64,000 nt of DNA. It comes from a plasmid. The stretch lies in sequence record NZ_CP041047.1. One strand, 5' to 3'. A program made the position numbers and the translations under genes. Positions 4,538 to 52,032 of the stretch are shown one piece after another; the first letter of the stretch is position 1; each line of letters opens with the position of its first letter. The notes under the pieces were generated by a model, which saw only the letters and a list, made by a program, of their open reading frames with translations, was not told the DNA's origin and searched no databases.

Positions 4538-4609
4538 AACTATCCTCCAGAACTTAATTTACCCTGGTCATTCCAGCCGACAAAAGATTGTCGGGTTGTT
4601 TTCTACAGG

Positions 4610-4670
4610 CCTTCCCTCTCAATCCCACCGGGTATATTTTCCCCTTCCCTCTCGTTCCCACCGGCGATAA
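4610..4670. repeat. iteron-like direct repeats CCTTCCCTCTC(N)CCCACCGG, two copies (a related inverted copy lies near 4885)
   Basis: the ~22-bp unit is repeated here and again at 6140-6250, flanking the rep paralog on both sides. Confidence 0.45.
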
Positions 4671-4947
4671 AAACTGTGCAGATTAAAAAAGTATCTTTTT
4701 GGGATTAGGCGAACAGCAGTAATTATAAAGAGGAGTGTTATTTTCTTTATTTTTCATGGTAATACAAGTTGTATTCAATAGAGGCCTGACGCGCCCCATC
4801 AGCTTTTCAGATGTAAATGGGACTATTTATCCTTTAGCGACTACAAAATCACGGGTGGGTTTGAGAGGGAAACGTCAACTTAGTGTTTTTGACCGGTGGG
4901 AATGAGACAGCACATTCCCGGAACCGGGCAAAAAGACGTTTCAAACA

Positions 4948-5814
4948 TCAGGAACCTGTTAGTTTGGGATTCCGATCCGTGATCTGAATGGTGGGTACGC
5001 TGGTGTCCACCAGGTAGTAAAATTTCAGGTAACCGATGCTGGCAAGCACATCGAGAGCAGTTCGCATTTTCCGGTTCTGTTCGGCAATGCGCCCATTGAG
5101 CAGTAAACGCTGTCGAAGTCTGTCAAAGGTGATCGGGGCTGGATGTTGAGGTAGCGCTTCAAAAAATGTATAGAGCGCCTGAGCCGTTTCATTCCTGGTA
5201 AGTAGCTCCAGGGGTTTCTTCCGCAACAGAGTAAGATGATCTGAACGGTACAAATCCCAGAGTCGTTCGTCGGCTTCCAGGATGATGTAATCACTTTCAC
5301 CATCAAATTCCGCCTCTTTCAGCAACCCGGCTACTTTGAACTTGGTGATCCCCGGGTTCTTCTCAAACCGAATGCTTTTTGAGCGAATCTTCGTCAACGA
5401 ATCGGCTATCTCATTGCGCAGTTTCGTGCTGTAGCGTTTTGATGGGTAGCCGCAGAGTTTGGCAAATTCACTAAAGGGCATTTTAATCCGGTTACCTTTC
5501 AGCGCATCAGGCGATACGCTGAAGGAATGGACGATTGCTGTCCAGCACCGGAAGTCCTGGAAATAATTCAGCATCGGGCCGGTGATCTTTATGTCCGTGT
5601 ACCCTTCCTGTTTTGCAATTTCCAGACTGGATAGCGCTTCCGTCACGTTTAGCGTGACCGTTGCCTCTGTTCGGCAACTGGGAGTAAAAACGCCCAGGCG
5701 GAGCAGTGATACAGGTTGTACTGATGAATTTTTTGTCACCGTCAGCTTTCCAGTCGACGGCTGATTGAAGTCGGGAATAGCGTCCTTGAAAAGAAGAACT
5801 TCATTCGAGTTCAT
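4948..5814 (-). CDS. RepFIB-family replication initiator paralog (288 aa)
   Basis: Shares conserved blocks with the RepA at 7561-8679 (LLRLGVFTPS vs ALMRLGLFVPSP; AQALYTFFEALP...ASIGYL vs AQALYTFIESLP...ASIGYLQY). Flanked by its own CCCACCG-type repeats. Confidence 0.7.
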   Translation of the reverse strand: MNSNEVLLFKDAIPDFNQPSTGKLTVTKNSSVQPVSLLRLGVFTPSCRTEATVTLNVTEALSSLEIAKQEGYTDIKITGPMLNYFQDFRCWTAIVHSFSVSPDALKGNRIKMPFSEFAKLCGYPSKRYSTKLRNEIADSLTKIRSKSIRFEKNPGITKFKVAGLLKEAEFDGESDYIILEADERLWDLYRSDHLTLLRKKPLELLTRNETAQALYTFFEALPQHPAPITFDRLRQRLLLNGRIAEQNRKMRTALDVLASIGYLKFYYLVDTSVPTIQITDRNPKLTGS

Positions 5815-6139
5815 CGTGTGGATCCCCCAGTTTTATTGTTATTTTCCGGGTATCTTGGAATGCCCAGTCCGGGCGAATGTATCACGGTGATTTTTATTGA
5901 TCATGAGAAATAGGGGTCATTTAGTCCCCATTTATCGGGTATTGGTTTTTATTTGTACTAAATCAATACGTTATTTCAGAGATGAATCGGATAAATGTCG
6001 TTGACATCAAATTTTTGATCTGCTGCCAGTGTGGACAAAAAATGAATACCGATCACCTATTTTTGAGATTTGTTACGTATGATTATGTTTTTATTTGATG
6101 TTTTCATTAGCACAGCAGATGTTGATAATTAAGTTCCTT

Positions 6140-6386: not shown

Positions 6387-6636
6387 TTAAATTTGGCCAC
6401 TACGAACTGTCTCAATACCACTCTGAACAACATCCCAGTTGATACCGATATCACCATCGTGAGTTCGGTCTATCAACGCTAAGGTCGACTCAGCTTCGCT
6501 AGCTGAAACCTGCGGCATGTTTCGGTCTATTGCTAACTCCTGAACATCAGACTTGTACCAGACACGGACTAGCACCTTTTCGTCAGGGTTCATTTTTTGC
6601 AGCTTTGCGATAATTTCTTTTGCAGTTGCGTACATG
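6387..6636 (-). CDS. small hypothetical protein (about 82 aa, start at internal Met MYATAKEII)
   Basis: The ORF track gives 6387-6764. The internal ATG at 6636 lies 53 bp below the conserved GTGACGAAG motif, as for the other backbone genes. Confidence 0.35.
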
Positions 6637-6718: not shown

Positions 6719-7350
6719 CAGGACAGTTCCAATAAAGAGATCCCAAAGGTGCAACGGAGTACAAAAGAGATCCCTGTACGCTGCAAGCCGCATGGTTACT
6801 GGGCTCAAGGGCATTTTATGACAATGGTAATGACTTTTTTGACATTGGTAATGATTAAAATGACATTGGTAGTGACTATTTCGACGTTAGTAGTGAGTAT
6901 TTGTGACAATGGTAGTGAGTTTTATTGTGTGATCTGAAGGTATAACTCTTAAAGAGTTTTGAGTATATTTCTATTATAATTCATATAGATACCATCTATC
7001 ACCTGTATGATGAAACAAAATTATTAAAATCTTATCCACTGTTTTCTATACGCATTTTCCTTTCATGCCCGTACATATTTTCGACAATTTAGCTATTCGA
7101 TGTTGATTTAACTCGAAGAGAGAATTTATCCCCATTTTCCACAAGGTAGTTCCAATAATTAGTACCTTACGAGTTCCCATAGATCACAAGAGATCCCCGC
7201 AGCTCGGAAGCCAGACGGCACAAGGCCTGGAAGCCAATCGGTGACAACGGTAGTGATTATTTTGACATTGGTAGTGAGTTTTTTAACGGTAGTAGTGAGT
7301 TTTTTGACAACGGTAGTGATTGCGGCGACAATGGTAGTGATTTTTTAAAG
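6719..7350. repeat. RepFIB-type origin region upstream of repA: two ~215-bp duplicated blocks (6719-6935 and 7139-7350), each ending in 4-5 direct iterons of type TGACAATGGTAGTGA
   Basis: direct repeats tgacaatggtaatgac / gacattggtagtgac / gacgttagtagtgag and so on; block-level duplication beginning ttccaca(a)gg(a/t)agttccaataa. Confidence 0.65.
7032..7040 (+). promoter_or_regulatory. DnaA-box-like sequence TTATCCACT (8/9 match to TTATCCACA)
   Basis: sequence match in the AT-rich stretch between the iteron blocks. Confidence 0.3.
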
Positions 7351-7560: not shown

Positions 7561-8679
7561 ATGACCAATGAGAAAGATTCTGAGCAGCAAGGCCAGATGG
7601 TTACCAGGGCTTTCTCTGTAACAGAGAGAGAGACAGGTAAAGAAATTATTTTACGTCCTAATAGCAGCAGGACGGTTCAGTCTATCGCGCTCATGCGCCT
7701 TGGGTTGTTTGTGCCATCACCAAAAAGCGTTGGCCGTCAGAGTCGTGAATACAAAACTGTTGGCTTTGATGCCACGAAAGAACTACAGACACTTTCTTTG
7801 ATGGAGAGCGAGGGTTTCACCAATATCTCGATCGTGGGTCAGCGCCTCGATATGTCTGTTGACTTCAAAACGTGGATGGGAATCATCCGAACGCTAGCTA
7901 ACCATCCGATTGATAACGATAAGATCAGCCTCAAATTTACTGAGTTTCTGAAGCTCTGTAACCCTGAAAATTATCGTTCCTCTACCGCATCCCGTAAGCG
8001 TATCGACGCGTCGTTACGCAGGCTGGCATCCGTGATGTTGTCCTTCACCAGCACCCACTCGTCAAAGGTGTATACGACGCACCTGGTGCAGTCTGCCTTG
8101 CTTGACCCGGACTCTGATCAGGTAGAGCTACAGATAGACCCTAAGATATTCGAGTTGTATCAGTACGACCACAAGGTTTTGATGCAGCTGAAGGCTATCA
8201 AGGAACTGGCGAAAAAAGAGAGCGCACAGGCGCTTTACACGTTCATTGAGTCACTTCCACCAAATCCAATCCCGATCTCCTTAACGAGACTTAAGAACCG
8301 ATTAAATCTTAAGACCCGTGCCAACAGCCAGAACGCCACAGTACGTAAGGCATTGGAGGAGCTGGCATCCATTGGTTACCTTCAGTACACCGAAGTAAAA
8401 AAAGATGGGAAGGTTTATTTCCAGATCCACAAACGCGATCCTGATTTGAATCTGAACAATATCCAACCACCACCTGATGGTGATGGCGAGGGTGATGCTG
8501 ATGAGGAGAACAATGGCACGTCGGGTAAAAATAATGGTGAGCCACTGGAAGGTGAATTGTGCCCACCAGATGAGCCCATTGATGGGGATGAAACGTTAAC
8601 CATCCATGACTTAACAGCTGAAGAACTTCACTACATTCGCAGCCTTAGAAGCCAGAAAAAGAACAATCCCGCCAGCTAG
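7561..8679 (+). CDS. repA: RepFIB-type replication initiator RepA (372 aa) with acidic C-terminal tail
   Basis: Iteron arrays on both sides; recalled similarity to the RepFIB/P307-type RepA family; Asp/Glu-rich C-terminus. Confidence 0.8.
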   Translation: MTNEKDSEQQGQMVTRAFSVTERETGKEIILRPNSSRTVQSIALMRLGLFVPSPKSVGRQSREYKTVGFDATKELQTLSLMESEGFTNISIVGQRLDMSVDFKTWMGIIRTLANHPIDNDKISLKFTEFLKLCNPENYRSSTASRKRIDASLRRLASVMLSFTSTHSSKVYTTHLVQSALLDPDSDQVELQIDPKIFELYQYDHKVLMQLKAIKELAKKESAQALYTFIESLPPNPIPISLTRLKNRLNLKTRANSQNATVRKALEELASIGYLQYTEVKKDGKVYFQIHKRDPDLNLNNIQPPPDGDGEGDADEENNGTSGKNNGEPLEGELCPPDEPIDGDETLTIHDLTAEELHYIRSLRSQKKNNPAS

Positions 8680-8749: not shown

Positions 8750-10210
8750 AGCTTAATGACAACGGTATTGAGTGACGCGGTCACTACTGTTGTCATTGCG
8801 GGGTGACCACTCATGACAATGGTAATGAGACTAGATAGCTCACTACTGTTGTCATCATCGACATCTCTCCAGACCAGCTTCTCAGGGAAGGTCTTACACC
8901 GCTCACTACCATTGTCGGAATCGCCGGTACAGACAAATCGCTGATACCCATGACACCATGACATCGGCAATGAGTCTTGGCAGCTCACTGCTGTTGTCAT
9001 CATCGACAACTCTCCAGAGCAGCTTCTCGGAGAAGACCTCATACCGCTCACTACCATTGTCGGCATCGTCAGTACGGATTTATCGCTGATTCCCATGACA
9101 CAATGACAACGGTAATGAGTGATTTGACTCACTACCGCTGTCATTTGCTCCCGGCGCATTTGAATGACCACTGTATTGACTAAGAATACTCACTACCGTT
9201 GTCATTCATGATTCAGACCAAGTTCTTACTGCTCCACCAGCACAATGACAACGGAAATGAGTTCTGTTGGTCATTACCGTTGTCATATGCATTCCAGGTT
9301 AATCAGGCCTTTCAGGTAGCTATGGTAAGGATTCACTCGCCGTACTGTCTGCTCGTACTTGAGGGGCGGGATGAATGACCGTGGTAGTGACCGCGTCACT
9401 CCCTGTCGTTGTCGTTGTATGAATACATGGCCTGTCGGTGACAATGGAAATGAGTCCAACCGCTGTCGTAGCTAACCTGATTGGTCAATGACAATGGATG
9501 TGATTTTTTCAAGTCTCTACCATTGTCATCGTTTCCAAGTACATTTCAGTGGGGTCGTTCCGGCGATGACGAATCAAGTGAGTGCGGGATCACAACCATT
9601 GTCGAGGCACAACTTGCCGGTTGTAGCCATACCGAACGCTGCGACAACGATAGTGATCTCGATCACTCATTACCGTTGTCACCAGGCGGATGGTGAAGCA
9701 CCAGAATCACTACTGTTGTCATCTAACATTCTGCTACCCATGCAACCAATGACGATGGTAGTGAGCAACGCCGTCTACTTGCTGTATATAGGGATAGTAT
9801 GATGAGCCATAACAATGGTAATGACTCACTACCATTGTCATAGTTCCTGTACTTGATTGCCGGTAACCAGACAAGGGTTAACCATTAAGTCACTACCGTT
9901 GTCATTACAGAAAGGTACTTTCCTTAATTGTCATTACCGTTGTCGACCATGCACCCTCTTACCAGTAGTAACGGTTCGTTAATTATGTGAAGGTGATCAT
10001 TACCATTGTCACTGGTTACACTCCCGGCAGATTCAAAAATCGAGTGACAATGGATGTGAGTTCGATGCGCAGGACGGCATCTCAGTGCCGATGGCAATAG
10101 TTATGAGCTGACCAGACTGGTGACAACGATAATGAGCCAAGCATTGAAGCCCGTTTGCTACGACAACGGTAATGATTAGGCCTCACTACCGTTGTCAGAC
10201 ACGATGCTTA
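8750..10210. repeat. Extended iteron field downstream of repA: about 30 copies of GACAA(C/T)GGTA(A/G)TGAG in both orientations, spaced roughly every 30-60 bp
   Basis: The repeated motif is visible throughout (for example 8756, 8812, 9097, 9241, 9440, 9488, 9640, 9810, 10035, 10160 forward; 8783, 8840, 8902, 9045, 9128, 9190, 9270, 9668, 9705, 9888, 9928, 10180 reverse). ORFs called here are spurious. Confidence 0.75.
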
Positions 10211-38895: not shown

Positions 38896-40071
38896 TTAGT
38901 ACACCGGGTGCAGCTGAGTCTCTTCAGTTTCACCATTCTGCTGGTTAGCGCCATCGGTATCGGCATCAGTCGCATCGTCAGCACCGCCGTTGTTTTCAGC
39001 ACTATCACCGTCGTTGTCACCATTAGCTTCAGCATCTTCTGCCTGTTTTGCTGATTCCAGTTCAGCCAGGGTAGCCATCAGAGTACGGGCCATTTCAGGA
39101 GTCAGGCGTAAGACGACTTCTTCCGGCACGGTTTCCGTAATTTCGATCTGATTTTCATGCTCACCTTCCGGCTGCGGCGGGATCTGGTCGCGCAGCTGGC
39201 TCAGGGTTGGCAACAGGCTGTCGAAGGTTTTACGGATAACTTTCGGTTTCAGGCCAGTCTTTTTCTTGGAACTCACGAATTTGGCAGTGACGCGGGTTTT
39301 CCCAGCTCCTTCTGCCTTTTTCAGGGATTCCATCAGGACTTCATACGGGTCGCGGTCAGTACCCTGACATTCGTTAATAACGTCAACGGCAACGTCACCA
39401 GATACCTTATCTTCTTTCACCAGCATCTTGATGCTGAAGTCAGCGTTTGCCAGCACGATACTGCGGCGAACGGTGACCAGAGAGACACCCAGACGCTGAG
39501 CAATCGACTCAATGGTGTGACCCCAGCCAATCAGGCGCTTGAAGCCTTCAGCGCGTTCCACCATCTTCAACTGAAGGGAGTTGGCGCTCTCGATCATGTT
39601 GTAGACTTCTTCGTCCTTGCCGCCTTCAAATTCCTCGACGGTGATTTTCTGGAAGCTCGCGCCCTCAGCAATCGCCATCATCAGGCCAGCAAAACGGTGG
39701 TGGCCATCAATGATTTTCAGGCGGGTTACGCCTTCCACTACTACTGGTTTAACGCGGATGACAGGCACTGACTGAGGACGTTCCAGATAAGCGTGTTTGA
39801 ACATTACCGCACGGTCATAATTTACGTCGCGGAGGTTCAGTCCCTCTTCCACAAACAACCAGTACGGGCTCACCGCAAAGACGTTGTTACGCCCGATATC
39901 GGCTTCTTCGAACTGTTCCGTATTGCCGCTTTTACGCGCTTTGGTTACGAAATCGCTCAGTGCTCGGAGTGATGATGGCGCTTTGTCTAAGCTGCGCATC
40001 AGTACCGCAGCGCCTTCCAGATTTTCCAGGGTACGGCTTTGTTCGAAGATAGCTTTAACGTCGGTGTTCAT
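38896..40071 (-). CDS. ParB-like nuclease-domain protein (391 aa) with acidic low-complexity C-terminal tail
   Basis: ParB/Srx N-domain IIDGHHRF. The stop codon TAA overlaps the TTAG target duplication of the IS5 composite element. Conserved motif 77 bp upstream. Confidence 0.6.
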   Translation of the reverse strand: MNTDVKAIFEQSRTLENLEGAAVLMRSLDKAPSSLRALSDFVTKARKSGNTEQFEEADIGRNNVFAVSPYWLFVEEGLNLRDVNYDRAVMFKHAYLERPQSVPVIRVKPVVVEGVTRLKIIDGHHRFAGLMMAIAEGASFQKITVEEFEGGKDEEVYNMIESANSLQLKMVERAEGFKRLIGWGHTIESIAQRLGVSLVTVRRSIVLANADFSIKMLVKEDKVSGDVAVDVINECQGTDRDPYEVLMESLKKAEGAGKTRVTAKFVSSKKKTGLKPKVIRKTFDSLLPTLSQLRDQIPPQPEGEHENQIEITETVPEEVVLRLTPEMARTLMATLAELESAKQAEDAEANGDNDGDSAENNGGADDATDADTDGANQQNGETEETQLHPVY

Positions 40072-42646: not shown

Positions 42647-44347
42647 TCACAGGGCTTTTTCTTTTCCCTTTCGTTCTATCCCACGAAACATCGCGCATTT
42701 CCGCACAATATCCAGTGTCGGGATGCTACCACTCCCCTGCTCTTTCACGCTCATTCGCAACGTGAGCCGTAGCAACATCTTGATGTCACGTGGTGGAAGT
42801 TCTGGGTAAGTGTTTACAAGTGATCTGACCAGTTCATCAGGAATGTTCACGCCAAAGTTCTCACCCATAATCTTCCAGATCTTTTGGGCATCTGATTTCT
42901 CCGGCACATCATAGTGAATGATTGCAGCGCATCTTGGTATGATAGCCTCATCGATGTCACTACCCCGGTTGCTTGTCATGAACATCAACCCATCGAAATA
43001 CTCCAGTGTACGGAGGAACTCCGCAACGATGGCATTTTGAGTCAGTGATGCTCCACGCTGCATGACAAACACATCGGCTTCGTCCAGAAGCAGGACACAG
43101 TTCCAGCGTTTAGCCCGGGTCAGAATCGTCCGCAGATTTTTCTCAATGTCATCGGCGTTGGTTCCCAGTGCGCCAGCATGAATTGAGTACAGGGGCCGTT
43201 CAATGACCTCTGCATACACTTCAGCAGTTAATGTCTTCCCAAGTCCGGGTGAGCCCACGCACATGATGATGTTACCCGCGCTTTTCCCTTCAACAATATC
43301 GCTGGTGAAAGCGCTGATATCCGTGGTCAGTATATCGAGTAAATCACGGTGGTCTTCCGGCAAAACCATCTTTTTTGGCAGTTCTTTATCATACTTGTAT
43401 GGTTCTACGTTATTGGCATGTATCCAGATAAAGTCTTGCAGCGAGAGATCAAAATAACGCTGCACAGGAATTTCGGGTAAAAGGCCAAACTGGTCATCTT
43501 CAAAAAGAGGCGACTCCACTTCTGCACCGTAGGCATCGCACTCACTATCAGGCAAATCGTGTATCAGTTTATGCCCTGCTATTTCCAGATTCCGGTCGCT
43601 GTAGCTATACGATTCCATTCTGACAGCCCTGCCGGTTGCTTTAAACTGATTGCCAAATTGCCCGTCGACCACTTCCTTAAACCGCGTTAGTTGTTCCAGG
43701 TACTCTTGTTTCAGCTCATGCGTTTCATGGTAGATATCACGGTCGGCCAGTGTCTTAGCGACACTGCGCCGCGCCACCTCATTAGGCTCGAAATTCAGGG
43801 CGGTAAGCTGGGTTCCGTAAACCTTTTTGGAGTGCGAATATTCGCCGAACCCATACCAGCTGATTTGTAACAATAGTGATGGGGGACGGTCAGAGTTTTT
43901 TTCTGATTTTACTTCTTTTATTGCTGTAACAAGACCGGGGTACAGGTTGCCGTCATGACCGCGTCGGTATATCCAGCCATCAATTCGATTTGACTTCAGA
44001 TACTGTAGTAACACACGACCGAATGCCGGAAAACTGCTCACAGGCTTATCGAAATCACCTTCCAGTGCAGTGATGATCGATTCAAGAGCTCGTCGATTTT
44101 TTGACTCTCCATCACCACGACATGCCTGTAAAAGTTCATTCAGATCATCCCGAGATAAACATAGCGGATCGACGGCAATCTCATCGTCAGAACTACGGTG
44201 GCTATAACGATTACGTAAAGCCTCAAATGTTGGGCTTGTGGTAGCTTTTAGTGTTTCTGTTTTTATCGTGAGTGCCATAGCCGTCCTCGTCAGTAATTTA
44301 CTTTGATATGCCTTAAGTTCACATGGAAGGGGCAACTTCGAACGCAT
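42647..44347 (-). CDS. AAA+ ATPase (566 aa): unknown ~330-aa N-terminal domain plus C-terminal classic-clade AAA module
   Basis: Walker A GSPGLGKTL, Walker B VLLLDEAD, and second region of homology FMTSNRGSDIDEAIIPRC. Start overlaps the upstream small gene by 29 nt. Confidence 0.7.
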   Translation of the reverse strand: MRSKLPLPCELKAYQSKLLTRTAMALTIKTETLKATTSPTFEALRNRYSHRSSDDEIAVDPLCLSRDDLNELLQACRGDGESKNRRALESIITALEGDFDKPVSSFPAFGRVLLQYLKSNRIDGWIYRRGHDGNLYPGLVTAIKEVKSEKNSDRPPSLLLQISWYGFGEYSHSKKVYGTQLTALNFEPNEVARRSVAKTLADRDIYHETHELKQEYLEQLTRFKEVVDGQFGNQFKATGRAVRMESYSYSDRNLEIAGHKLIHDLPDSECDAYGAEVESPLFEDDQFGLLPEIPVQRYFDLSLQDFIWIHANNVEPYKYDKELPKKMVLPEDHRDLLDILTTDISAFTSDIVEGKSAGNIIMCVGSPGLGKTLTAEVYAEVIERPLYSIHAGALGTNADDIEKNLRTILTRAKRWNCVLLLDEADVFVMQRGASLTQNAIVAEFLRTLEYFDGLMFMTSNRGSDIDEAIIPRCAAIIHYDVPEKSDAQKIWKIMGENFGVNIPDELVRSLVNTYPELPPRDIKMLLRLTLRMSVKEQGSGSIPTLDIVRKCAMFRGIERKGKEKAL

Positions 44348-44720
44348 TAGGAACTCTGATCCGCGAGCCTATTTCCAGTTTAATGGTTGCCTTTACGTAT
44401 TCACCCTCCTTCAGATAGGTGATGTCTTGGTTATGAAATGTTGACTTTTCATGTGTAGCCCACCATTCCATAGAGCTTGGGATTTTTAACGTTAGCCCAA
44501 GATGTTCAGTGAGATAGCATACTCCCATGTTTGAGTAGGTCTTAACGGGGTTCGGGTAGAATTGAAAGTTACCCTCTACGAGACAATCAGTACGAGGATC
44601 GATGAACGAAAGGAAAACGCTAAAAGTACCCTGACGTTTTAGCTCGGCGTAAGCCTCAAGAATCGTGAAACGCTTTAATGCGTCATTTGAAAACAGGGTT
44701 ACAATTTTTTCCGAAAGCAT
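44319..44720 (-). CDS. hypothetical protein (133 aa from Met at 44720 with RBS GAGGTGG; ORF track start 44804), partner of the AAA ATPase
   Basis: Strong RBS before the internal ATG. The 44804 ATG would sit inside the promoter motif/terminator region. Confidence 0.5.
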   Translation of the reverse strand: MLSEKIVTLFSNDALKRFTILEAYAELKRQGTFSVFLSFIDPRTDCLVEGNFQFYPNPVKTYSNMGVCYLTEHLGLTLKIPSSMEWWATHEKSTFHNQDITYLKEGEYVKATIKLEIGSRIRVPNAFEVAPSM

Positions 44721-44768
44721 AGCCACCTCATGAGCTGTTTTTTTCCTATTATCAACCGGTGTCTCCTC

Positions 44769-44777
44769 CTGACGAAT
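44769..44777 (+). promoter_or_regulatory. conserved motif CTGACGAAT (copy 8)
   Basis: 49 bp upstream of the 44720 start. Confidence 0.4.
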
Positions 44778-44789
44778 AGGTTTGCGGCC

Positions 44790-44816
44790 AAAAAAAAACT
44801 GCACCAGGAGGTGCAG
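44790..44816 (-). terminator. intrinsic terminator of the parAB operon (ctgcacc(tcc)tggtgcag plus T9 on the minus strand)
   Basis: perfect hairpin plus T-run about 30 bp after the parB stop. Confidence 0.7.
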
Positions 44817-44843: not shown

Positions 44844-45848
44844 TTATTTTTCGCTACTCAGTTTATCCGTAATAAATGCTTCAATTTCTGCCATGAGCTC
44901 GGTACTCATTCGGTTAAATTCAAAGCGAACTTTACGGCCTGATGCATTTTTGCTGATACGGGCGTATTTGTCCTTATTAGCAAAATTAGCCAGATCACGG
45001 GTTTCCCAACTTTTTGCAGGTGGCTTTTGATCGAGTAATTCAACCGCCTTTGTGATCTGCGCCATGACAATTTTCTGCGCTTCCGGGATGTCACTGATGT
45101 CCAGATTAGCAATTTCTTCTTTCACCCTATCAACTACATCTGCAAGAATGAAAAGGTTGCTCTCTACGTATTTCTGAAGTTTGGACAACCGGCTGTAGAA
45201 GGAGTTTGGTATACCTTCATAATCCGGGAACAGAGCTATCAACGAACCGTCAATACGCGCCGCCTGAATACGTTTAAAGACTGACACATGGCTTATGCCA
45301 AGAAAGAGGGCAAGCTCTTCATTTTTGGTGAATCCTTTTTCCTGCATTAGTTCCAGATACTGAAGCCCAACCTCTCGGTATGAGAATCGGCGTGATGTTT
45401 GTGCAGCGGTAATAATCGCCTTGATGTCCTCAGCTGATAGATCATCTGGTAGCACCCATAAAGGCAGATCTTTTTGAGCCGCAATACAGCAAAAACGTCT
45501 GCGGCTACCTTCAATAAGCAGGTACACGCCATCACGTTTAACGGCAACACCTTCAGTATCAACACCCCTTGACTCAATTTGTTGCAGGATATCTCGTACT
45601 GCGTTTGTGGTAAGCGCTTCCTGATTTCGCGGGTTCATTGGGTGAACGGCGGTCTCAGTAGCGACATTTTCAGCTGCTACAGTGACGTGCTCAGCTTCAA
45701 GTTTTCGCCCGTTATGAAGGGTAAAGAGTTTCTTAATGCGAGGGGGACTCTTAAGGTTAGCTAACCCGGAACGGTGGCCTACATCGGTTCGCTTTGGCGT
45801 ATTTAGATAACGCGATTTATCGTTTCCGATATGCTGTTCATCACTCAT
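44844..45848 (-). CDS. parB: ParB, type Ia (P1-like) centromere-binding protein (334 aa)
   Basis: ParB box LLIEGSRRRF; overall resemblance to P1/P7 ParB; overlaps the parA stop. Confidence 0.8.
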   Translation of the reverse strand: MSDEQHIGNDKSRYLNTPKRTDVGHRSGLANLKSPPRIKKLFTLHNGRKLEAEHVTVAAENVATETAVHPMNPRNQEALTTNAVRDILQQIESRGVDTEGVAVKRDGVYLLIEGSRRRFCCIAAQKDLPLWVLPDDLSAEDIKAIITAAQTSRRFSYREVGLQYLELMQEKGFTKNEELALFLGISHVSVFKRIQAARIDGSLIALFPDYEGIPNSFYSRLSKLQKYVESNLFILADVVDRVKEEIANLDISDIPEAQKIVMAQITKAVELLDQKPPAKSWETRDLANFANKDKYARISKNASGRKVRFEFNRMSTELMAEIEAFITDKLSSEK

Positions 45849-47107
45849 GCGTTAACTCCTTCCTTCGCTGAAAAACTCTTTATCTCATTAATAAACTGTT
45901 GATATACGGACATTACGGATTCTTCGGCAATATCCAGCTGCTTTGGTGAACATAACTCTTCAGATTTCTTAATATCGAGAACCGACCTACCCCGTGACGC
46001 AGCTGCTTTGAATGCTTCAGAGTTTTTGATATTGGTTGCCATAAACAGGTCTTGAACGGTTCGAATTAACTTATCGAGGACTATTTTTTCGTATGGGCTT
46101 TTATCATCGACGTTAACGGCCAGTACTTTAAACCATTTAATATTTTCACCTTTATTGGGAGACTGACGGAATCGCTCACTGATCGTCAGCATAAAATCAG
46201 TTGTGGATGCATAGTCGTATTCTCGCGGAGAAACTGCGACAAGAATACCGTCAGCGGCCTCATCAGCGGCCCAGATAATTGGCGAGTCTTCTGGAGGGGT
46301 ATCGAAGATAATAAGGTCATACTTAGCTTTCAGGACTGGCATTATCACTTCTTTGAATCGTAGCAACAACTGAGTGCGCTCTTCTTTACTGCACTGCCAG
46401 TATTTATCTTTGAATCTCGCATCGGTTGGGAACGCAGTAATTACATCAAGATTTGGCAGATGGGTTGAGAACGGCATATTCTCAATGATTTCAGCCTCAG
46501 AGTAACCCATGTCGAGGTATTTTTTATATTCAGAACCTTCTTCATACACGCCCAGGATTGCGTCGATTGCAGTCAGGAATACGTCGTCTTCAGATACGCT
46601 TTGAATCATACCGCTACCAATAGAGCCTTGCGGATCCCATTCAATTACTAAAACTCTGGCATTCAACTGGAGATCAAGTGCTGCTGCTACAGCCAGAGCC
46701 ACTGAGGTCGTGCTTTTTCCTGTCCCACCTTTATGATTCTGAACAATGATTGTTCGGCTCTGGTAGTAATCTCTATAGCGCGGATAACCCAGGGCATCCA
46801 TAATATTCTGGACATCCCAGCGGGTATAAAGGTGGTTTTTGTTCTGATAAATAGGTTGACCCACCAGCCTTTTTTCTTCGAGATCAGCGAGAATTTTATT
46901 GAAGGTAACTCGAGATTTTCCAAAGAAGTCGGAGAGATTTTTTTTATTCAGGCAGTGGTTATAGATAAGGCGATCTACCCCCTCCACACTGTCATCTGAT
47001 ACAGATACCCGGGAAGAAGCCAGTAACGATTCTTTCAATGAAATTTGTTCGGACTTCATGCGTTGCCCGACAAGGGCAATTTTATCTATTAGATTCATTC
47101 TCGTCAT
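45845..47107 (-). CDS. parA: ParA, type Ia partition ATPase with N-terminal HTH extension (420 aa)
   Basis: deviant Walker A KGGTGKST; N-terminal ~100-aa extension typical of P1 ParA/SopA-type. Confidence 0.85.
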   Translation of the reverse strand: MTRMNLIDKIALVGQRMKSEQISLKESLLASSRVSVSDDSVEGVDRLIYNHCLNKKNLSDFFGKSRVTFNKILADLEEKRLVGQPIYQNKNHLYTRWDVQNIMDALGYPRYRDYYQSRTIIVQNHKGGTGKSTTSVALAVAAALDLQLNARVLVIEWDPQGSIGSGMIQSVSEDDVFLTAIDAILGVYEEGSEYKKYLDMGYSEAEIIENMPFSTHLPNLDVITAFPTDARFKDKYWQCSKEERTQLLLRFKEVIMPVLKAKYDLIIFDTPPEDSPIIWAADEAADGILVAVSPREYDYASTTDFMLTISERFRQSPNKGENIKWFKVLAVNVDDKSPYEKIVLDKLIRTVQDLFMATNIKNSEAFKAAASRGRSVLDIKKSEELCSPKQLDIAEESVMSVYQQFINEIKSFSAKEGVNA

Positions 47108-47119: not shown

Positions 47120-47210
47120 GAATTATGAATTTAAACGCATATGCGTATACTTTACGTATAATGCGTAAAATGACGCTCTATGCGTATAATTGTAACGGCA
47201 ATCAGATTGA
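47120..47210. promoter_or_regulatory. putative parA promoter/operator with repeated ATGCGTATA half-sites
   Basis: gcatatgcgtatactttacgtataatgcgtaaaatgacgctctatgcgtataattg forms inverted/direct repeats overlapping TATAAT-like elements. Confidence 0.5.
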
Positions 47211-47288
47211 GACGCTAACATTCTATTTTGTTTTTTCTTCATTTTGCGATCTCGAAATGCAGTTCAATGACACATCATCTTTCTCTTC

Positions 47289-47660
47289 TGGCGATTAAGG
47301 GGGTTAAGTAATCCACGGGGCGGGCAGAACCCGGAGAGACTGACTGGCGATTAAGGGGGTTAAGTAACCCACGGGTCGGGCAGAACCCGGAGATGCTGGC
47401 TGGCGATTAAGGGGGTTAAGTGACCCACTGTACGGGCAGAAACCGGAGAGGCTGGCTGGCGATTAAGGGGGTTAAGTGACCCACTGTACGGGCAGAAACC
47501 GGAGAGGCTGGCTGGCGATTAAGGGGGTTAAGTGACCCACGGTACGGGCAGAACCCGGAGAGGCTGACTGGCGATTAAGGGTGTTAAGTAATCCACGGGT
47601 CGGGCAGAACCCGGGGATGCTGGCTGGCGATTAAGGGGGTTAAGTGACTTAGCGCTGGAG
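47289..47660. repeat. tandem array of 6 full plus 1 partial ~57-bp repeats (CTGGCGATTAAGGGGGTTAAGTGACCCACNGTACGGGCAGAAMCCGGAGAGGCTGG); candidate centromere/incompatibility array
   Basis: contiguous head-to-tail repeats, so not CRISPR-like; each contains TCGCCA, which is P1 parS boxB-like. Confidence 0.7.
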
Positions 47661-47716
47661 GATACGCCCTGCAACTATTGGTAAATGAATGACAAGGTTT
47701 CCCGTAAGACCCATCA

Positions 47717-47744
47717 AATAAAAAAGCCTCTGAAGTAGAGGCTC
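47717..47744 (-). terminator. intrinsic terminator (agcctct(gaagt)agaggct plus T-run on the minus strand)
   Basis: just after the stop of the 47762-48031 gene. Confidence 0.55.
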
Positions 47745-47761
47745 TTGGGTATTCGATATAG

Positions 47762-48031
47762 TTAGGCTAATTCGTCCGGGTCGTTGATGGCACTAACGAA
47801 GAACTCCGTGCGGTAATCATTCCCCCATCCCAACCAGACAGAAGGTGAACCCTCCTTTGCCAACGAACGGTCACCCGTCATGCTGTCCGCTTGGACAGGA
47901 ACTGTCACGCATTCTTTAATAGTATCGGCCTCGGCAACCAGTCCAGTACTCTGGGTTTCAAATCCGGCAATTACGACAACAGCATCAGGGTCGTGTAGCT
48001 GAAGCTGGGCGATAAGCTCTTTAACTTTCAT
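47762..48031 (-). CDS. hypothetical protein (89 aa)
   Basis: ORF track. Confidence 0.4.
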   Translation of the reverse strand: MKVKELIAQLQLHDPDAVVVIAGFETQSTGLVAEADTIKECVTVPVQADSMTGDRSLAKEGSPSVWLGWGNDYRTEFFVSAINDPDELA

Positions 48032-48077
48032 AGTGATCCTCTGCGCTAGAATTATCCAATTCTACCACGCTTGATGG

Positions 48078-48599
48078 TCAGGCGTATAAGTGCTTACTGT
48101 ACAGCTCGAAAGCTTCATCATGTTCCAAATCGTCCAGGATAACGATATCAGGGCCATGTTCTTTTTTGATTTGTGCGATGTATGAAGCGTATTGAGCCTG
48201 GCTTTTGTAGCCCACTGTCCAAAGTCTACCTTCGCGTAAGACGCAGATTTTCTTGCGGTAAACCTTCTTGAAACTTGATTTAGTTTTCCGGTTACGCTCC
48301 TCGTCACTGACAAGCTGGTCGATTACTTCAATCAGGTTTGAGTCTATGAGAAATGGCTTGCCATTGTGTTCGCCAAGGCAGATTGGCAGAAGACCCTTCG
48401 CATATGATTCGGCCTGGCGGAACAGCTCTTTTTTTCCTGGTTCGAACAGTACGCGAGTTTCGCCACCATGCCCATCATTATCAGCTGTACCTATGCTCAG
48501 CCCGTCGAAGAGGACAGTAGCGTTAAAGCAGACTGTTTCCTGGCTCATGCCAGTATAGATTTTGAGGCCTTTCAATTTGATTCTTGTCTGAGTGTTCAT
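48078..48599 (-). CDS. hypothetical protein (173 aa from MNTQTRIKL with RBS GGGGAA; ORF track start 48638)
   Basis: conserved motif 54 bp upstream of the 48599 start. Confidence 0.45.
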   Translation of the reverse strand: MNTQTRIKLKGLKIYTGMSQETVCFNATVLFDGLSIGTADNDGHGGETRVLFEPGKKELFRQAESYAKGLLPICLGEHNGKPFLIDSNLIEVIDQLVSDEERNRKTKSSFKKVYRKKICVLREGRLWTVGYKSQAQYASYIAQIKKEHGPDIVILDDLEHDEAFELYSKHLYA

Positions 48600-48652
48600 T
48601 GTGTGTTCCCCGCTTTCTAATTGTGATTCTATTTTCAATCACCTTGAGCAGG

Positions 48653-48661
48653 TGACGAAGT
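48653..48661 (+). promoter_or_regulatory. conserved motif GTGACGAAG (copy 9)
   Basis: 54 bp upstream of the 48599 start. Confidence 0.45.
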
Positions 48662-49054
48662 GATACGGAGAAATAATTGTTGGGTCGCCTGATAGCCGGG
48701 CTGGTGGCAGCCGCAACCCTTAGTCAGTACTTCGGGATCGTAGTTCCGAAAAGCCACAACAGTCTCCACAGCGTTTTGGGGGTGTTAACCCCCATACGCT
48801 TTGAGACTTTGCCCTAGCGGGCCGCGAATTCGCCTAATCGCCCCGTGAGGGCTCTATTCGAATTTACATGTCGTGCCTGCTTCGCTTGAGAGCGAAGCTT
48901 TTGGACGGCGATTGCCCGCGTGGCGGGCAGACATTTTTACGTGCGCATTGCGCACGATTTTCTTCGGTTACATTACAGGGCTGGCTGGGGATTGGCTTAT
49001 TGCAATATTCTACAACGAAGCTGGGAACGGCTGGCTGGAACGCGAAGATTTAAA

Positions 49055-49321
49055 TCATACTCTATATCGACTGATATCAACGACGGTATCAGCGGGGTCT
49101 GTTGCCAGCTTACAGGTCACTTGACCTTCCTGATCCAGCATCAGTGTCGCGGTTAACGGTTCATTTTGAGCATCGATTACAGTGACATTCACGCGTAACC
49201 GTGTTGGAAGCATCATCAGAATTCGCGTAGGGCTCTCTGATAATGACACGTTTCTGGCTTGCAGAACCGCTAAAACACTCTTCATTAACTCTGCTTGGTC
49301 GATCATATAGTCACATGCCAC
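49055..49321 (-). CDS. hypothetical protein (88 aa)
   Basis: ORF track. Confidence 0.35.
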   Translation of the reverse strand: MACDYMIDQAELMKSVLAVLQARNVSLSESPTRILMMLPTRLRVNVTVIDAQNEPLTATLMLDQEGQVTCKLATDPADTVVDISRYRV

Positions 49322-49727
49322 TGGATGTATTGGGATGAAATCGTGCCTACCGCAGGGCTACACGAAAGATATAAATCAGTATGACATGCGGGCCGGACTC
49401 AAACCATCAATTACTGGAACCAGTCCGAAGATAGCGCTCTGGTTTTTATGCTGTTGAATTTACATAGTTGTTATTTAGTGAATTATTCGTACCTTATCAT
49501 TCACTGATATCACTTAAATTCAAAGTGAACAGGAGAGGATTGGATTAAAAGTCCATAAAATGTGAATTAAAAGTGCGCTAGGAAATGCGATAAACTGATT
49601 GATTTGTTTTGATATGGTTTTTATGTGAATTATCGGTGAGTTACTTGTGTGCTACTTATCTCCATGCTGCTATGCCTTTCCAATAAATAGATTGGATAGG
49701 GCAGGGAGATGGAAGAGGGGAGAGGGC

Positions 49728-50570
49728 TTACTCCGCAGGTGATTTCACTTTAAATTCAAGCCATCTTGCCCCGAGCCTGTTTTTATCCAGATTGTAGAAC
49801 AACGGTTTTATACAGACCCCTTCATACTCAGGGAACTCTATACCGCTGGCGAAGTGAATCTGTAGTGTATCAGGATCAATACCCATCATGTTTGTGTCAA
49901 ACAGCCTGTGGAATGTTGGTGATAGCAAAATGCCGTTACTGGCGTTATAGCAGCCTGCTACGGATGTTGGTTCAATATGTGCTGCCTCCAGCACACCGTT
50001 GAGGTGTTTGCCCGATACCGCGCACAGGCTTCCGAAATTCTTATCCACCAACTCACGGAACTGAGACTGGACATGCACATCGCGAACGCTAACCTCTCGG
50101 CGGAAGCTCGGGGAGCGCATACGGATATCTGCATGGGGGAGGTGACCGCGTGGTAATGGCAATACAGCCGGTTGCTCATCCATTACTGGATTCTGCTCCT
50201 CGCAGTAGGTGTCCACGGACTCAATCAAACGGGATGTGTCATTACCAAATCGGCGAGTGAACCAGAGCCTGAAGTGAGCCAACCGTGATGCCGGAATTTT
50301 GTTACGTGCGTACTCCTGAGCATTCTCCTTTTCGATTTCAGTATTTAGTAAAGCCAGACGGGCCTGAGAAGCACGAATTTCTTCCTGGACTCTGAGATAT
50401 CCTGCCAGTAGACAAACTTTGGATTCCTGATGTTCAGGCCGTCGCGGATAACCAGATCCTGTTTCAACCACGCCAAAGGCTTTGTACCGGAACATTCGGG
50501 GAAAAAGCGTTAATGCCACCCGGTTGTTACGACGAACGAGGGAACGAATCAGATTGGTTATCTTCCTCAT
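49728..50570 (-). CDS. HNH endonuclease-domain protein (280 aa), paralog of the 10208-10927 ORF
   Basis: CAVSGKHLNGVLEAAHIEP...NGILLSPTFHRLFD HNH core; N-terminal region also related to the other copy. Confidence 0.6.
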   Translation of the reverse strand: MRKITNLIRSLVRRNNRVALTLFPRMFRYKAFGVVETGSGYPRRPEHQESKVCLLAGYLRVQEEIRASQARLALLNTEIEKENAQEYARNKIPASRLAHFRLWFTRRFGNDTSRLIESVDTYCEEQNPVMDEQPAVLPLPRGHLPHADIRMRSPSFRREVSVRDVHVQSQFRELVDKNFGSLCAVSGKHLNGVLEAAHIEPTSVAGCYNASNGILLSPTFHRLFDTNMMGIDPDTLQIHFASGIEFPEYEGVCIKPLFYNLDKNRLGARWLEFKVKSPAE

Positions 50571-50952
50571 GTTCTGAATAGTGCGGGGAGAAAAGAACGC
50601 GGCGTATTACCTCTGCTCTATCTATTCCCGACATTATCCCTCTGCGAATGACACCACGGAGGTGAGCATTATGTCTTGCCCCGCTTACTAGGCCGAACTC
50701 ACGGGACAAACTGACATACTCTTTCAGGAGGTGATGCTTAGGGTCGGTAAACGCCTCTGGAGGAATCACCTGATATGCAACTGACGAAAGTATACGGAAA
50801 GTCAGTTCAGATGCTGTCCAGCCCTCACGCCGAAGCCGAATAATTGTTATAACGAGATCATCGATACCAGGCATATCCGGTTCGATATATAGGGACATCA
50901 GAGTGTCGTTCATTCCGGGAGGAAGGCTAGCAGAGTGTGACGGGTTGCTCAT
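50527..50952 (-). CDS. hypothetical protein (141 aa)
   Basis: ORF track; overlaps the start of the HNH gene. Confidence 0.4.
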   Translation of the reverse strand: MSNPSHSASLPPGMNDTLMSLYIEPDMPGIDDLVITIIRLRREGWTASELTFRILSSVAYQVIPPEAFTDPKHHLLKEYVSLSREFGLVSGARHNAHLRGVIRRGIMSGIDRAEVIRRVLFSPHYSEHEEDNQSDSFPRSS

Positions 50953-51137
50953 AGGGTAAGGTACTGATCGGACGTAGAAGAAGCGCTTATGTTACGGAAT
51001 TCGCTCTGGTGGGTTTTAGCTCCAGTGGCGAACGCTGGAACTACGGGTAAAAAAATCCCCGGTTTACCGGGGAAGTTAACAACTACCTCCAGAAGGGTTG
51101 GAGGCAAAGCCGGTTGGGCGACCGGCCACAGGGAATG

Positions 51138-51302
51138 CTACGGCTTAATGCCGAGTACTACACCGCCATAGACCAGGTACATCACGATGGCGAACAGCAT
51201 GAAGAAATGGGTTACCGGGTGCGCCAGCGCGGCTGCTGCCGCATTGCTTGCGCTGAGCTTCAGTGAGCCAAAAGAGTGATTACGAACAGCTTGTGCTTTC
51301 AT
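51138..51302 (-). CDS. small membrane protein (54 aa from MKAQAVRNH with RBS AGGAG; C-terminal transmembrane segment)
   Basis: the internal start is the one with an RBS; conserved motif 66 bp upstream. Confidence 0.4.
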   Translation of the reverse strand: MKAQAVRNHSFGSLKLSASNAAAAALAHPVTHFFMLFAIVMYLVYGGVVLGIKP

Positions 51303-51367
51303 GGGTCGCTCCTGATAACGGGTTACATGTTGTGGCTTCTGTATCCAGTATCTGGTGAGTGACTCAG

Positions 51368-51376
51368 GTGACGAAG
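51368..51376 (+). promoter_or_regulatory. conserved motif GTGACGAAG (copy 10)
   Basis: 66 bp upstream of the 51302 start. Confidence 0.4.
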
Positions 51377-51454
51377 AAAACCAGGGCATAAAAAGCCCTG
51401 TATTTTCAGAAAGATAATATCGGTTTCGTTTTGTGTTGTGCTTGCTATTCCGGG

Positions 51455-51490
51455 CATAAAAAAACCGCCTGGTGAACCAGACGGCTTTGG
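51455..51490 (-). terminator. probable intrinsic terminator (ccgtctgg(ttcac)ccaggcgg plus T7 on the minus strand)
   Basis: about 100 bp after the stop of the 51589-52032 gene; one stem mismatch. Confidence 0.45.
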
Positions 51491-51528
51491 GATAAACAGG
51501 CTTTACACAGACAGGTCAGTGGATCATT

Positions 51529-51556
51529 TAAGTCACTTAACCCCCTTAATCGCCAG
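51529..51556 (-). repeat. solitary inverted copy of the 47289-47660 repeat core (revcomp reads CTGGCGATTAAGGGGGTTAAGTGACTTA)
   Basis: 28/28 match to the terminal partial repeat at 47631-47658, in inverted orientation 3.9 kb away. Confidence 0.7.
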
Positions 51557-51588
51557 TGTATTGCCACCAGCAGTACGTGGTCTAACGC

Positions 51589-52032
51589 TTAAATATCGTA
51601 GCGACCTTCTTTGATTTGCTGGAGCTGTTCAGCCAGCACCTTCGCCAGTGGTTCGGCTTCTTCTTCATCATCAAGATTGTCGATGAGCGTCAGATTCGAC
51701 TCACCCGCACGGCGGGCATAAACCCCATACGCTCGCTGGCCGGAGATATCGGTGACCGAAGTCTGAGAGTGATCGCAGATGATATTGCCGTGACGGTCTA
51801 CCGGCCCGAAGCTGATGGCTTCATAATCCGCATCGTGGCCCAATGGTAAATCGCGCAAAACAAACAGGCGTAATGGGAGAACGTCGTACTCAGCACCACA
51901 TTTTGCTGCCACATCCAGATCGTTAATTTCACGGAGAAAATCTTTCGCTACCACCGAGTCAGAATGCATCCGGTAAATGGTCGATGCGGCCCAGATTGCA
52001 CCAGCATAAAATTGTGATTCTTCTTTTGTCAT
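51589..52032 (-). CDS. hypothetical protein (147 aa)
   Basis: last gene of the LRR operon. Confidence 0.4.
   Translation of the reverse strand: MTKEESQFYAGAIWAASTIYRMHSDSVVAKDFLREINDLDVAAKCGAEYDVLPLRLFVLRDLPLGHDADYEAISFGPVDRHGNIICDHSQTSVTDISGQRAYGVYARRAGESNLTLIDNLDDEEEAEPLAKVLAEQLQQIKEGRYDI

Follow-up and report, generated by a model that had tools for sequence, protein, structure and literature searches.

The window analysed here, a 64,000-nucleotide stretch of sequence record NZ_CP041047.1, derives from a Citrobacter/Klebsiella megaplasmid of the pKPC_CAV1321 type and carries on its minus strand a parA/parB pair, an array of short repeats and a block of small genes, beyond which lies one further, inverted copy of the repeat. 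The locus displays the following features:

44844..45848, minus strand: parB, 334 aa, with an arginine patch (LIEGSRRR), a helix-turn-helix and a P1-type C-terminal ParB domain (PF08775)
45845..47107, minus strand: parA, partition ATPase of the Walker type (420 aa) whose P-loop domain is preceded by an N-terminal extension of some 115 aa, as in type Ia
47134..47190, between array and parA: operator-like region with the palindrome ACGCATATGCGT and ATGCGTA motifs at a spacing of about 20 bp
47288..47651, minus strand (the parA strand): centromere-like array, seven copies of a 19-20-nt core TTAACCCCCTTAATCGCCA(G) at a spacing of exactly 56 bp
47289-47307, 47345-47363, 47401-47419 and 47457-47475, minus strand: core copies 1-4 of the array
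47513-47531, 47569-47587 (1 mismatch) and 47625-47643, minus strand: core copies 5-7 of the array
47722..47746, minus strand: intrinsic-terminator-like hairpin, ending the minus-strand gene block just before the array
47762..48031, minus strand: small ORF of 89 aa, no family match, adjoining the array
48078..51389, all minus strand: remainder of the block between the repeats, with small hypothetical ORFs and a gene for an HNH_2 endonuclease (Pfam) at 49728-50570
51382..51495, minus strand: two terminator-like hairpins (51382-51400 and about 51460-51495), just downstream, on this strand, of the lone copy
51529..51556 (core 51537-51555), plus strand: solitary inverted copy, complementary at 28/28 positions to the distal array copy (47624-47651)

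The HNH gene and the parA/parB pair named in an earlier note on this DNA are borne out by these annotations. ParB matches PF08775 with an E-value of 5e-12 (Pfam) and aligns over residues 150-326 with the helix-turn-helix and dimer domain of P1 ParB 142-333 (PDB 1ZX4; also 2NTZ), with an E-value of 1e-14. The operator-like region has a counterpart in plasmids R27 and pHCM1, where a 20-bp repeat (2.3 copies, TRF) is found between array and parA, directly upstream of the latter, and by analogy with the autoregulation of type Ia ParA proteins it may act as an operator. A ParM/ParR pair is encoded elsewhere on the pKPC_CAV1321-type plasmid, a likeness to the IncHI plasmids, which also possess double partition systems.

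A single array was found by TRF (47288-47645, period 56, 6.4 copies, 92% matches). The repeats described in the earlier note as six full copies and one partial copy of a unit of about 57 bp are real, but their seven cores lie exactly 56 bp apart, so that the unit is 56 bp long. When the 24-nt core TGGCGATTAAGGGGGTTAAGTGAC was searched with at most three mismatches, eight matches were obtained in the 64-kb window (expected by chance: 0, from 100 shuffles), seven in the array on one strand and one at 51532-51555 on the opposite strand. The hexamer TCGCCA (TGGCGA on the plus strand), reported earlier for each unit, is present in 8/8 copies. Internal copies of the array read GTGACCCAC, GTAACCCAC or GTAATCCAC, and the two boundary copies share the variant GTGACTTA, including three nucleotides (TTA) that are missing from the internal copies; this variant, which had been pointed out before, is real in this lineage. 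What the relatives have in common is (T)TTAACCCCCTTAATCGCCA(G), or (C)TGGCGATTAAGGGGGTTAA(A) when read on the plus strand of the window, and the motif GTGAC, previously counted as part of the core, turned out to belong to a lineage-specific spacer outside it. The array is composed of head-to-tail repeats with one candidate partition-protein site per unit.

The perfect inverted pair formed by the distal array copy and the lone copy (47624-47651 and 51529-51556) is identical at 28/28 positions, with 3877 nt separating the arms; the inverted repeats and the right arm had been described correctly, and the left arm had been placed 7 nt off, at 47631-47658. The lone copy is located between the stop codon of ORF 51589-52032 (minus strand) and the minus-strand terminator hairpins, and is the sole core outside the array in a complete 178.8-kb plasmid of the family. 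The Y19 plasmid (88% identical) carries it at the same place and in the same orientation, with the core conserved and the GTGACTTA flank not conserved, because of which the identity between the arms drops from 28 nt in the window to 21 nt in Y19. Across the 200-nt intergenic region, where the background identity between Y19 and the window is 85%, the longest perfect run (23 nt) coincides with the lone core and adjoins the most diverged stretch (10/23 mismatches); the chance of such a run at a given place is P ~0.02, and the conservation of the lone copy is seen in a single diverged lineage. We have no explanation for the inverted orientation of the lone copy.

Comparison with other plasmids places the array in a known family. 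ParA of the window is 89.7% identical to that of R27 over 417 aa and ParB 72.8% over 331 aa (tblastn), with the same values for pHCM1. Arrays with an identical 19-nt core (TTAACCCCCTTAATCGCCA) lie upstream of parA in Par1 of R27 and pHCM1, in IncHI2 (R478-type; plasmid pJMA2), in Enterobacter MGH14 and at 13 GTDB loci, the ParBs of the latter being 70-78% identical to that of the window, and all these arrays, including that of the window, are co-oriented with parA. Lawley and Taylor reportedly showed in 2003 that the repeats of R27 Par1 are its cis-acting site. The number of cores varies, with 7 in the window (at 56 bp), 25 in R27 (copies 21 + 5 at 52-54 bp), 8 in pHCM1 and 3-12 in IncHI2 and others (about 10 at about 249 bp in IncHI2); the periods among relatives are 43, 52-56 or about 249 bp, with unrelated spacers from one family to the next. 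[quoted passage not shown]

The genes parA and parB are the only ones that accompany the arrays, save for the small ORF 47762-48031, which is found beside them in R27, pHCM1 and Y19 only. No other gene of the 3.9-kb block has a homologue by the R27 and pHCM1 arrays; that of the small ORF (74% and 73%) separates the main array there from a sub-array distal to it. In R27 this sub-array is direct and lies 0.8 kb off, whereas the window has one inverted copy, at 3.9 kb, as its distal site. The locus of the window also differs from R27 and IncHI in not being embedded in the Tra2 transfer region, and in its replicon, which is of the RepB family and typed 'pKPC-CAV1321'.

The core changes together with the ParB protein. 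Next to a Providencia ParB (53% identity) solitary sites AACAACCCCCTTGTTCGCCA are found on both sides of parAB, and next to a Klebsiella ParB (47%) the sequence AACAACCCCGTTGTTCGCAG is present in 23 arrayed copies and one solitary copy; both cores have altered letters and the same layout as the core of the window. Wherever the core is identical, the recognition helix has the stretch G(I/T)SHVSVxKRxQAA without variation; the two divergent ParBs both differ in it, and the C-terminal motif GRKxRFEFNR is kept together with CGCCA and reads GQKVSFEFKR where the box is CGCAG. At the level of sequence, the core varies in step with the recognition helix and the C-terminal motif of ParB.

The architecture of the core resembles that of the P1 and P7 parS sites, in which an inverted pair of A-boxes is directly followed by the B-box TCGCCA (geometry of A2-A3-B2). 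The parS boxes of P1 annotated in AF234172 (ATTTCAAGGTGAAATCGCCA) align with TTTAACCCCCTTAATCGCCA, with the same inverted-repeat centre and the last 8 nt (AATCGCCA, which includes the B-box) identical. The description of the hexamer as P1 boxB-like in the earlier note is upheld by this shared 8-mer and by the P1-type C-terminal domain of ParB. The proteins are alike as well, ParB combining a helix-turn-helix with a C-terminal dimer/B-box domain and ParA having the long type Ia form. The arms differ (TTAA/TTAA here, ATTTCA/TGAAAT in P1), ParB is only about 28% identical to P1-type plasmid ParBs, and P1 parS is a single bipartite site downstream of parB with an IHF bend, whereas here a seven-unit array lies upstream of parA. 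The classical type Ia systems of P1 and F have their centromere downstream of parB, which counts against a centromere at the array; a search of the region downstream of parB for the core at up to four mismatches found none.

Sites of the F plasmid provide a second comparison. The sopC centromere lies downstream of sopB, and its binding site is a 16-bp symmetric inverted repeat. It shares the logic predicted for the array of the window, in which short, identical protein sites repeated at fixed intervals nucleate the partition complex, and copy number varies; its repeats (43 bp, one SopB site each) have the same period as the array of a Buttiauxella relative. In contrast, the site found here is asymmetric (arms plus B-box) and its array lies upstream of parA, and the SopA model stays far below its cut-off (28 bits, cut-off 725). 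IncC plasmids possess 16 dispersed parS sites, some of them away from the par operon (PMC10954446), and by analogy such sites set a precedent for the lone copy as a true binding site, with the difference that here one outlying, inverted site is found within 4 kb and that IncC ParB and its site are unrelated in sequence.

The orthologous parAB-linked arrays, the co-variation of core and ParB and the likeness to P1 parS together argue that the array is almost certainly the ParB-binding centromere, of the type found in IncHI plasmids such as R27, as had been proposed for the adjacent ParB; it has the core, place and orientation of R27-type loci. As such, it is an ordinary further case of a known type Ia partition locus, with no new mechanism. 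In the overall reading that we consider very likely, the array is the centromere of a type Ia ParABS system of the IncHI Par1 type and the lone copy most likely an auxiliary ParB site and not a mobile end. That ParB binds the cores, that the array works as a centromere and that the lone copy has a role are here predictions from the sequence. No published description of a par site in pKPC_CAV1321-type plasmids was found in the literature. Each unit would present a single ParB site of 20 bp, (T)TTAACCCCCTTAATCGCCA(G), with the construction of the A2-A3-B2 half of P1 parS. The ParB helix-turn-helix would read a C-tract enclosed by two short inverted arms (TTAA...TTAA), and the C-terminal dimer domain the hexamer TCGCCA that follows the arms. 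A large ParB complex, nucleated by the seven sites, would form immediately upstream of the operator and promoter of parA, to be positioned by ParA; the 36-nt spacers would have a spacing role only, and the eighth, inverted site 3.9 kb off may extend or bridge the partition complex.

Alternative explanations concern either the lone copy or the array itself. Under one of them the array is the centromere and the lone copy a functionless relic, left from a distal sub-array or from an old rearrangement and perhaps binding ParB incidentally. The presence in R27 and pHCM1 of a distal sub-array on the far side of the ORF 47762-48031 homologue indicates that a second block of sites is ancestral in the clade and could have decayed to one copy; an inverted copy of the core is present in no other relative (none within 10 kb on either side of the locus), and the statistics for selection on the lone core are modest. 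However, when 100 nt on each side of the lone copy were aligned locally to the array, no spacer remnants or further units were found (scores matched by 17/500 and 130/500 shuffles), and a relic under no selection should have diverged as much as its flank, whereas the lone core is perfect in both diverged lineages beside 23 nt with 10 mismatches, which counts against a relic. We regard this explanation as rather unlikely and the lone copy as probably an eighth, auxiliary ParB loading site; the suggestion of a second ParB site made in the earlier note is plausible, given that it is the only other core on the plasmid, that its core is kept in Y19 and that solitary sites exist in relatives. A bipartite centromere, in which ParB would bridge the array and the inverted copy into a 3.9-kb loop around the transcription unit, appears improbable; ParB bound at the two ends would then face inward, with the B-boxes on the outer side and the arms on the inner side, an arrangement like that across the IHF bend of P1 parS.

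The earlier note had also suggested that the pair of repeats marks an invertible or mobile segment. The 28/28 inverted identity around 3.9 kb, the TTA shared by the boundary copies and missing from the internal ones, and the HNH nuclease gene inside the block would suit the ends of an invertible switch or mobile element. Against this, the block is always present, and in one orientation, in 109/109 family plasmids, of which one differs by an ISEc36 insertion only and the other 108 are colinear over 47250-51800; the same arrangement is found in Y19, where the arm identity is down to 21 nt. No recombinase, invertase or transposase was found among the block ORFs scanned (Pfam, NCBIfam), the unscanned small RefSeq ORFs being annotated as hypothetical, no direct duplication lies outside the arms (flanks ATGCTGG and TGTATTG), and the complete 178.8-kb plasmid carries no further copies. 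The left 'end' is, moreover, a unit of a centromere array that also occurs in plasmids without the block. This explanation is thus hardly credible. It is very unlikely, too, that the array consists of iterons or serves another protein, such as ParA or a second ParB-like protein (38896-40071). Tandem repeats near maintenance genes can be iterons, and the second ParB/KorB-like gene lies 7 kb away, weak homologues of its product (24%) being encoded at other places in the first 50 kb of R27; however, around the arrays at other loci no homologue of this protein is present within 8-10 kb, a separate operator-like element lies between array and parA, and the core tracks changes in ParB. The same core accompanies parAB in differing replicons (IncHI1, IncHI2, IncHI1B), and the RepB-family initiator gene (7561-8679), which has 21-bp iterons of its own (6814-7346 and 8812-9120), is 40 kb off, on which ground the array was rejected as a replication origin.

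With the array as the probable centromere, the candidate site of the pKPC_CAV1321-type plasmids is placed at 47288-47651, and its predicted 20-bp site is common letter for letter to IncHI1 and IncHI2 and linked to A2-A3-B2 of P1 parS; the comparison also yields predictions of the ParB residues that read each half of it. If the loop existed, it would enclose, and perhaps silence or insulate, the unit with the HNH endonuclease and ORF 47762-48031, and this ORF, located between site blocks in R27 too, could be an unrecognised accessory of IncHI-type partition. In Citrobacter, Klebsiella and Enterobacter, genes for carbapenemases and for fosfomycin resistance are found on megaplasmids of the pKPC_CAV1321 type (PMC11378647, PMC12363196), and the array would offer a defined target for plasmid curing or labelling. 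Since the core is identical in IncHI1, IncHI2 and pKPC_CAV1321-type plasmids, cross-recognition of centromeres and partition-mediated incompatibility would be expected between these distinct replicons.

The window region matches 108 plasmids (180-450 kb, most of them found in Citrobacter) at 99.5-100% identity, and one further relative at 88%; family plasmids are typed 'IncpKPC-CAV1321' in the literature (PMC12363196, PMC11378647). A literature search found no paper describing the partition site of this family, and the phage collection held no near match to the region. The partition locus and its neighbourhood comprise:

44844-45848, − strand: parB, following parA; 334 aa, with Pfam PF08775 'ParB family', the P1-type C-terminal domain, and an arginine patch, LIEGSRRR
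45845-47107, − strand: parA; 420 aa, with the array 180 bp upstream
47134-47190: operator-like region between array and parA, with a 12-bp palindrome ACGCATATGCGT and ATGCGTA motifs ~20 bp apart
47288-47651, − strand: array, seven copies of the core
47762-48031, − strand: ORF of 89 aa, no family match
51529-51556, + strand: lone inverted copy of the core

Tandem Repeats Finder reported one array at 47288-47645 (period 56, 6.4 copies, 92% matches), and since the start-to-start distance given by the repeat finder is exactly 56 bp, the unit measures 56 bp and not the ~57 bp of the earlier note, which had correctly recognised tandem copies with an inverted outlier. The 24-nt sequence TGGCGATTAAGGGGGTTAAGTGAC matches the 64-kb window eight times at ≤3 mismatches; seven of these matches are in the array and one is on the opposite strand at 51532-51555, while no match is expected in shuffled sequence. 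The longest inverted pair joins 47624-47651 to 51529-51556 (28 of 28 positions complementary, 3877 nt between the arms), so the terminal array copy had been placed 7 nt off, at 47631-47658; the TTA extension common to both boundary copies is present, and GTGAC, formerly assigned to the core, proved on locus comparison to be lineage-specific spacer. The spacer also contains a GC-rich mini-palindrome, CGGGCAGAACCCG, kept within the pKPC_CAV1321-type family only, to which no function is assigned because the spacers of other families lack it. Three near-identical plasmids (AP018570.2, NZ_PP626393.1 and NZ_AP022499.1) have an array that is shorter by 168 or 224 bp, corresponding to 3 or 4 units fewer; copy number of the putative centromere is therefore polymorphic within the family, a variation in length that is typical of tandem repeats.

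A translated search identified the ParBs of IncHI plasmids as the nearest relatives outside the family, with 72-77% identity in IncHI1, IncHI2 and an IncHI1B/IncP Enterobacter plasmid, followed by a Providencia plasmid (53%), Klebsiella IncFIB/IncHI1B plasmids (47%) and P1/FIB-type ParBs (~28% at most). These loci were compared together with 13 more from species-representative genomes. Every compared locus with a ParB 70-78% identical carries a tandem array just upstream of parA, with the identical core TTAACCCCCTTAATCGCCA in parA orientation.

Arrays in the compared loci (copies; period)
R27 (IncHI1): 21.6 + 5.6 copies; 52-54 bp
pHCM1 (IncHI1): 6 + 3 copies; about 54 bp
IncHI2 (pJMA2 type): about 10 copies; 249 bp
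Enterobacter MGH14, Pantoea, Pseudocitrobacter: 7-11 copies; 54 bp
Lelliottia, Scandinavium, Phytobacter: 3-6 copies; 55 bp
Buttiauxella: 10 copies; 43 bp

A locus-weighted profile displayed 20-21 near-invariant positions, (T)TTAACCCCCTTAATCGCCA(G), flanked by unconserved sequence, and the spacers are uniform inside one array and unrelated across families. The only genes that the window has in common with these loci are those for ParA (83-90% identical) and ParB, plus ORF 47762-48031, which is common only to the window, R27, pHCM1 and the plasmid of C. amalonaticus Y19. A core travelling together with parAB is, as judged from the sequences, the signature of a protein-binding site. A scan of viral contigs for the core gave one isolated match, in coding context and without ParAB, which was taken as chance. 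Two further features were seen in the arrays. In the IncHI2-type loci (L003, at 3592, and L011-L017), a directly oriented copy carrying a single change (TTAACCCCCTTTATCGCCA) lies apart from the array, ~460 bp past its first 249-bp unit. In Y19 (L024, CP011133; ~380-805), one array unit is split by a ~430-bp element starting with TGTG and ending with CACA, with repeated ACAATAAAG(T/A)TTG(C/T)CCG motifs at both ends and a 5-bp duplication, CGATT, on its flanks; its appearance is that of a miniature Tn7-like element inserted in a putative ParB site.

The homologues of ORF 47762-48031 in R27 (L029 27331-27065(−), 74% identical; missing from the R27 gene table) and pHCM1 (L019 4199-4465, 73%) have the main array on one side and the distal sub-array on the other, and no homologue was found near the arrays of IncHI2 or other relatives. 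At the position of the operator-like region, R27 (L029 25381-25426) and pHCM1 (L019 6663-6708) possess a 20-bp repeat in 2.3 copies, TATGCGTAAACTTTACGCAT; the repeats and palindrome between array and parA are likely the ParA operator. A consensus promoter scan for the parA promoter gave nothing convincing, with fewer matches than in shuffled sequence. Downstream of parB lie a 161-aa ORF without match (44319-44804(−), directly adjacent) and a 566-aa AAA ATPase (42647-44347(−)) with a sub-threshold match to the model for the anti-phage ATPase IteA (42 bits, cut-off 510); both are conserved in Y19, and the IncHI par loci have neither.

ParB residues 150-326 align with the crystallised P1 ParB fragment (1ZX4, 2NTZ; E 1e-14). 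For the site itself, an 83-nt P1 parS sequence, 100% identical to P1, was used with the A-boxes, B-boxes and IHF site of the AF234172 annotation. Its right half, A2-A3-B2 (ATTTCAAGGTGAAATCGCCA), has the same inverted-arm centre as the window core TTTAACCCCCTTAATCGCCA, and the last eight bases, AATCGCCA, including the B-box TCGCCA, are identical, so the likeness to the P1 B-box remarked on before is well founded. The array unit thus resembles the P1 'small parS' site, whereas its deployment, in many tandem copies upstream of parA, is sopC-like and differs from P1 parS, a single IHF-bent site downstream of parB.

More distant relatives retain the layout of inverted arms around a C-tract followed by a (T)CGC-type box. 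The Providencia plasmid is without array; a solitary site, AACAACCCCCTTGTTCGCCA, stands upstream of parA and another downstream of parB. The Klebsiella plasmid has 23 copies of AACAACCCCGTTGTTCGCAG arrayed every 66 bp, and a further one by itself downstream of parB. In K. pneumoniae pKP137-4 (L005) the array of 66-bp units spans 2 kb upstream of parA (3935-5899; ~30 copies, 23 recognisable sites), with an (AGGGC)x10 run just before parA (6404-6454), the solitary site at 9196 and several genes for Ig-like domains around the locus. In the ParB alignment, the HTH stretch G(I/T)SHVSVxKR(I/V)QAA is invariant in all ParBs with TTAA...TTAA arms and altered in both ParBs whose sites carry AACAA...TTGTT arms; the Providencia ParB, whose site keeps the box CGCCA, retains the C-terminal motif GRKxRFEFNR, which is altered to GQKVSFEFKR in the Klebsiella ParB, whose site has CGCAG. 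In P1, the HTH reads the A-boxes and the dimer domain the B-boxes, a division of labour that the co-variation of arms with HTH and of box with C-terminal motif would fit.

The earlier note had also proposed that the lone copy might be a second ParB-binding site, or that the inverted pair could mark an invertible or mobile segment. That the lone copy ends a mobile or invertible element is very unlikely, and this reading was rejected: 108 of the 109 family plasmids are colinear over 47250-51800, the remaining one differing only by an ISEc36 insertion, none of the scanned ORFs of the block has a recombinase or transposase match, the outer flanks of the inverted pair are without duplication, and the left 'end' is a unit of the array that is also present in plasmids without the block. 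In the complete 178.8-kb family plasmid CP056246, the core at ≤4 mismatches has no more than eight occurrences, seven in the array plus the lone copy, and no further 'termini' exist.

On one side of the lone copy is the stop codon of ORF 51589-52032, and on the other are terminator-like hairpins of the − strand; the array lies just past the terminator of the block's last gene. The two sites therefore enclose one transcription unit, or a few that run in the same direction. In Y19, the single diverged relative (88% nucleotide identity, ParB 94%), the arrangement is unchanged; the lone copy keeps its position and orientation, and only its core is conserved: across the 200-nt intergenic region (background identity 85%) the longest perfect run, 23 nt, coincides with the core and adjoins the most diverged stretch (10 of 23 mismatched). 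As the GTGACTTA flank is unconserved, the Y19 arms share 21 nt rather than 28. The perfect match over 28 nt is thus specific to one lineage and due to gene conversion or chance; the core itself looks to be under selection. This conservation argues against the lone copy being a relic, the less likely alternative, in favour of which the inverted outlier is unique to the pKPC_CAV1321-type family among the compared loci. A search for eroded repeat units was not significant and the flanks hold no trace of further units, so the copy is not demonstrable as the stump of a larger sub-array. Solitary sites also occur in the Providencia and Klebsiella relatives and R27 has sites on both sides of its ORF 47762-48031 homologue; it is thus normal in the clade for additional sites to occur outside the main array. 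Most likely, by a modest preference, the lone copy would be an auxiliary ParB site.

A role of the array as iterons of a replication origin was rejected, because a RepB-family initiator with its own 21-bp iterons sits 40 kb away:

7561-8679, + strand: ORF of 372 aa, RepB-family replication initiator (RefSeq annotation)
6814-6925, 7242-7346 and 8812-9120: 21-bp-period repeats (TGACAATGGTAGTGA...) in three blocks flanking this ORF

Together, repeats and gene probably form the pKPC_CAV1321 replicon's iteron-controlled origin. A second ParB/RepB/Spo0J-like gene (38896-40071(−), 391 aa), with a dnaB-like helicase gene downstream of it, has weak (24%) homologues in R27.

The array is predicted with high confidence to act as centromere for a type Ia partition system of the IncHI Par1 type; its service to the adjacent ParB, suggested before, is supported by the sharing of core, position and orientation among close ParB relatives. 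It belongs to an already known sort of centromere and not to a new one. The R27 repeats were reportedly identified by experiment as the Par1 cis site, and a literature search for descriptions of an IncHI centromere found none. Reviews and citing papers confirm only that R27 has two partition systems, the major one of type I and the minor one of type II. A ParM/ParR-like type II pair lies far from parAB in the same plasmid family (NZ_CP056246.1 30998-32408, L020), and together with parAB is reminiscent of IncHI plasmids, which have double partition systems. IncHI1, IncHI2 and pKPC_CAV1321-type plasmids are predicted to share a centromere sequence, and may disturb one another's partition.
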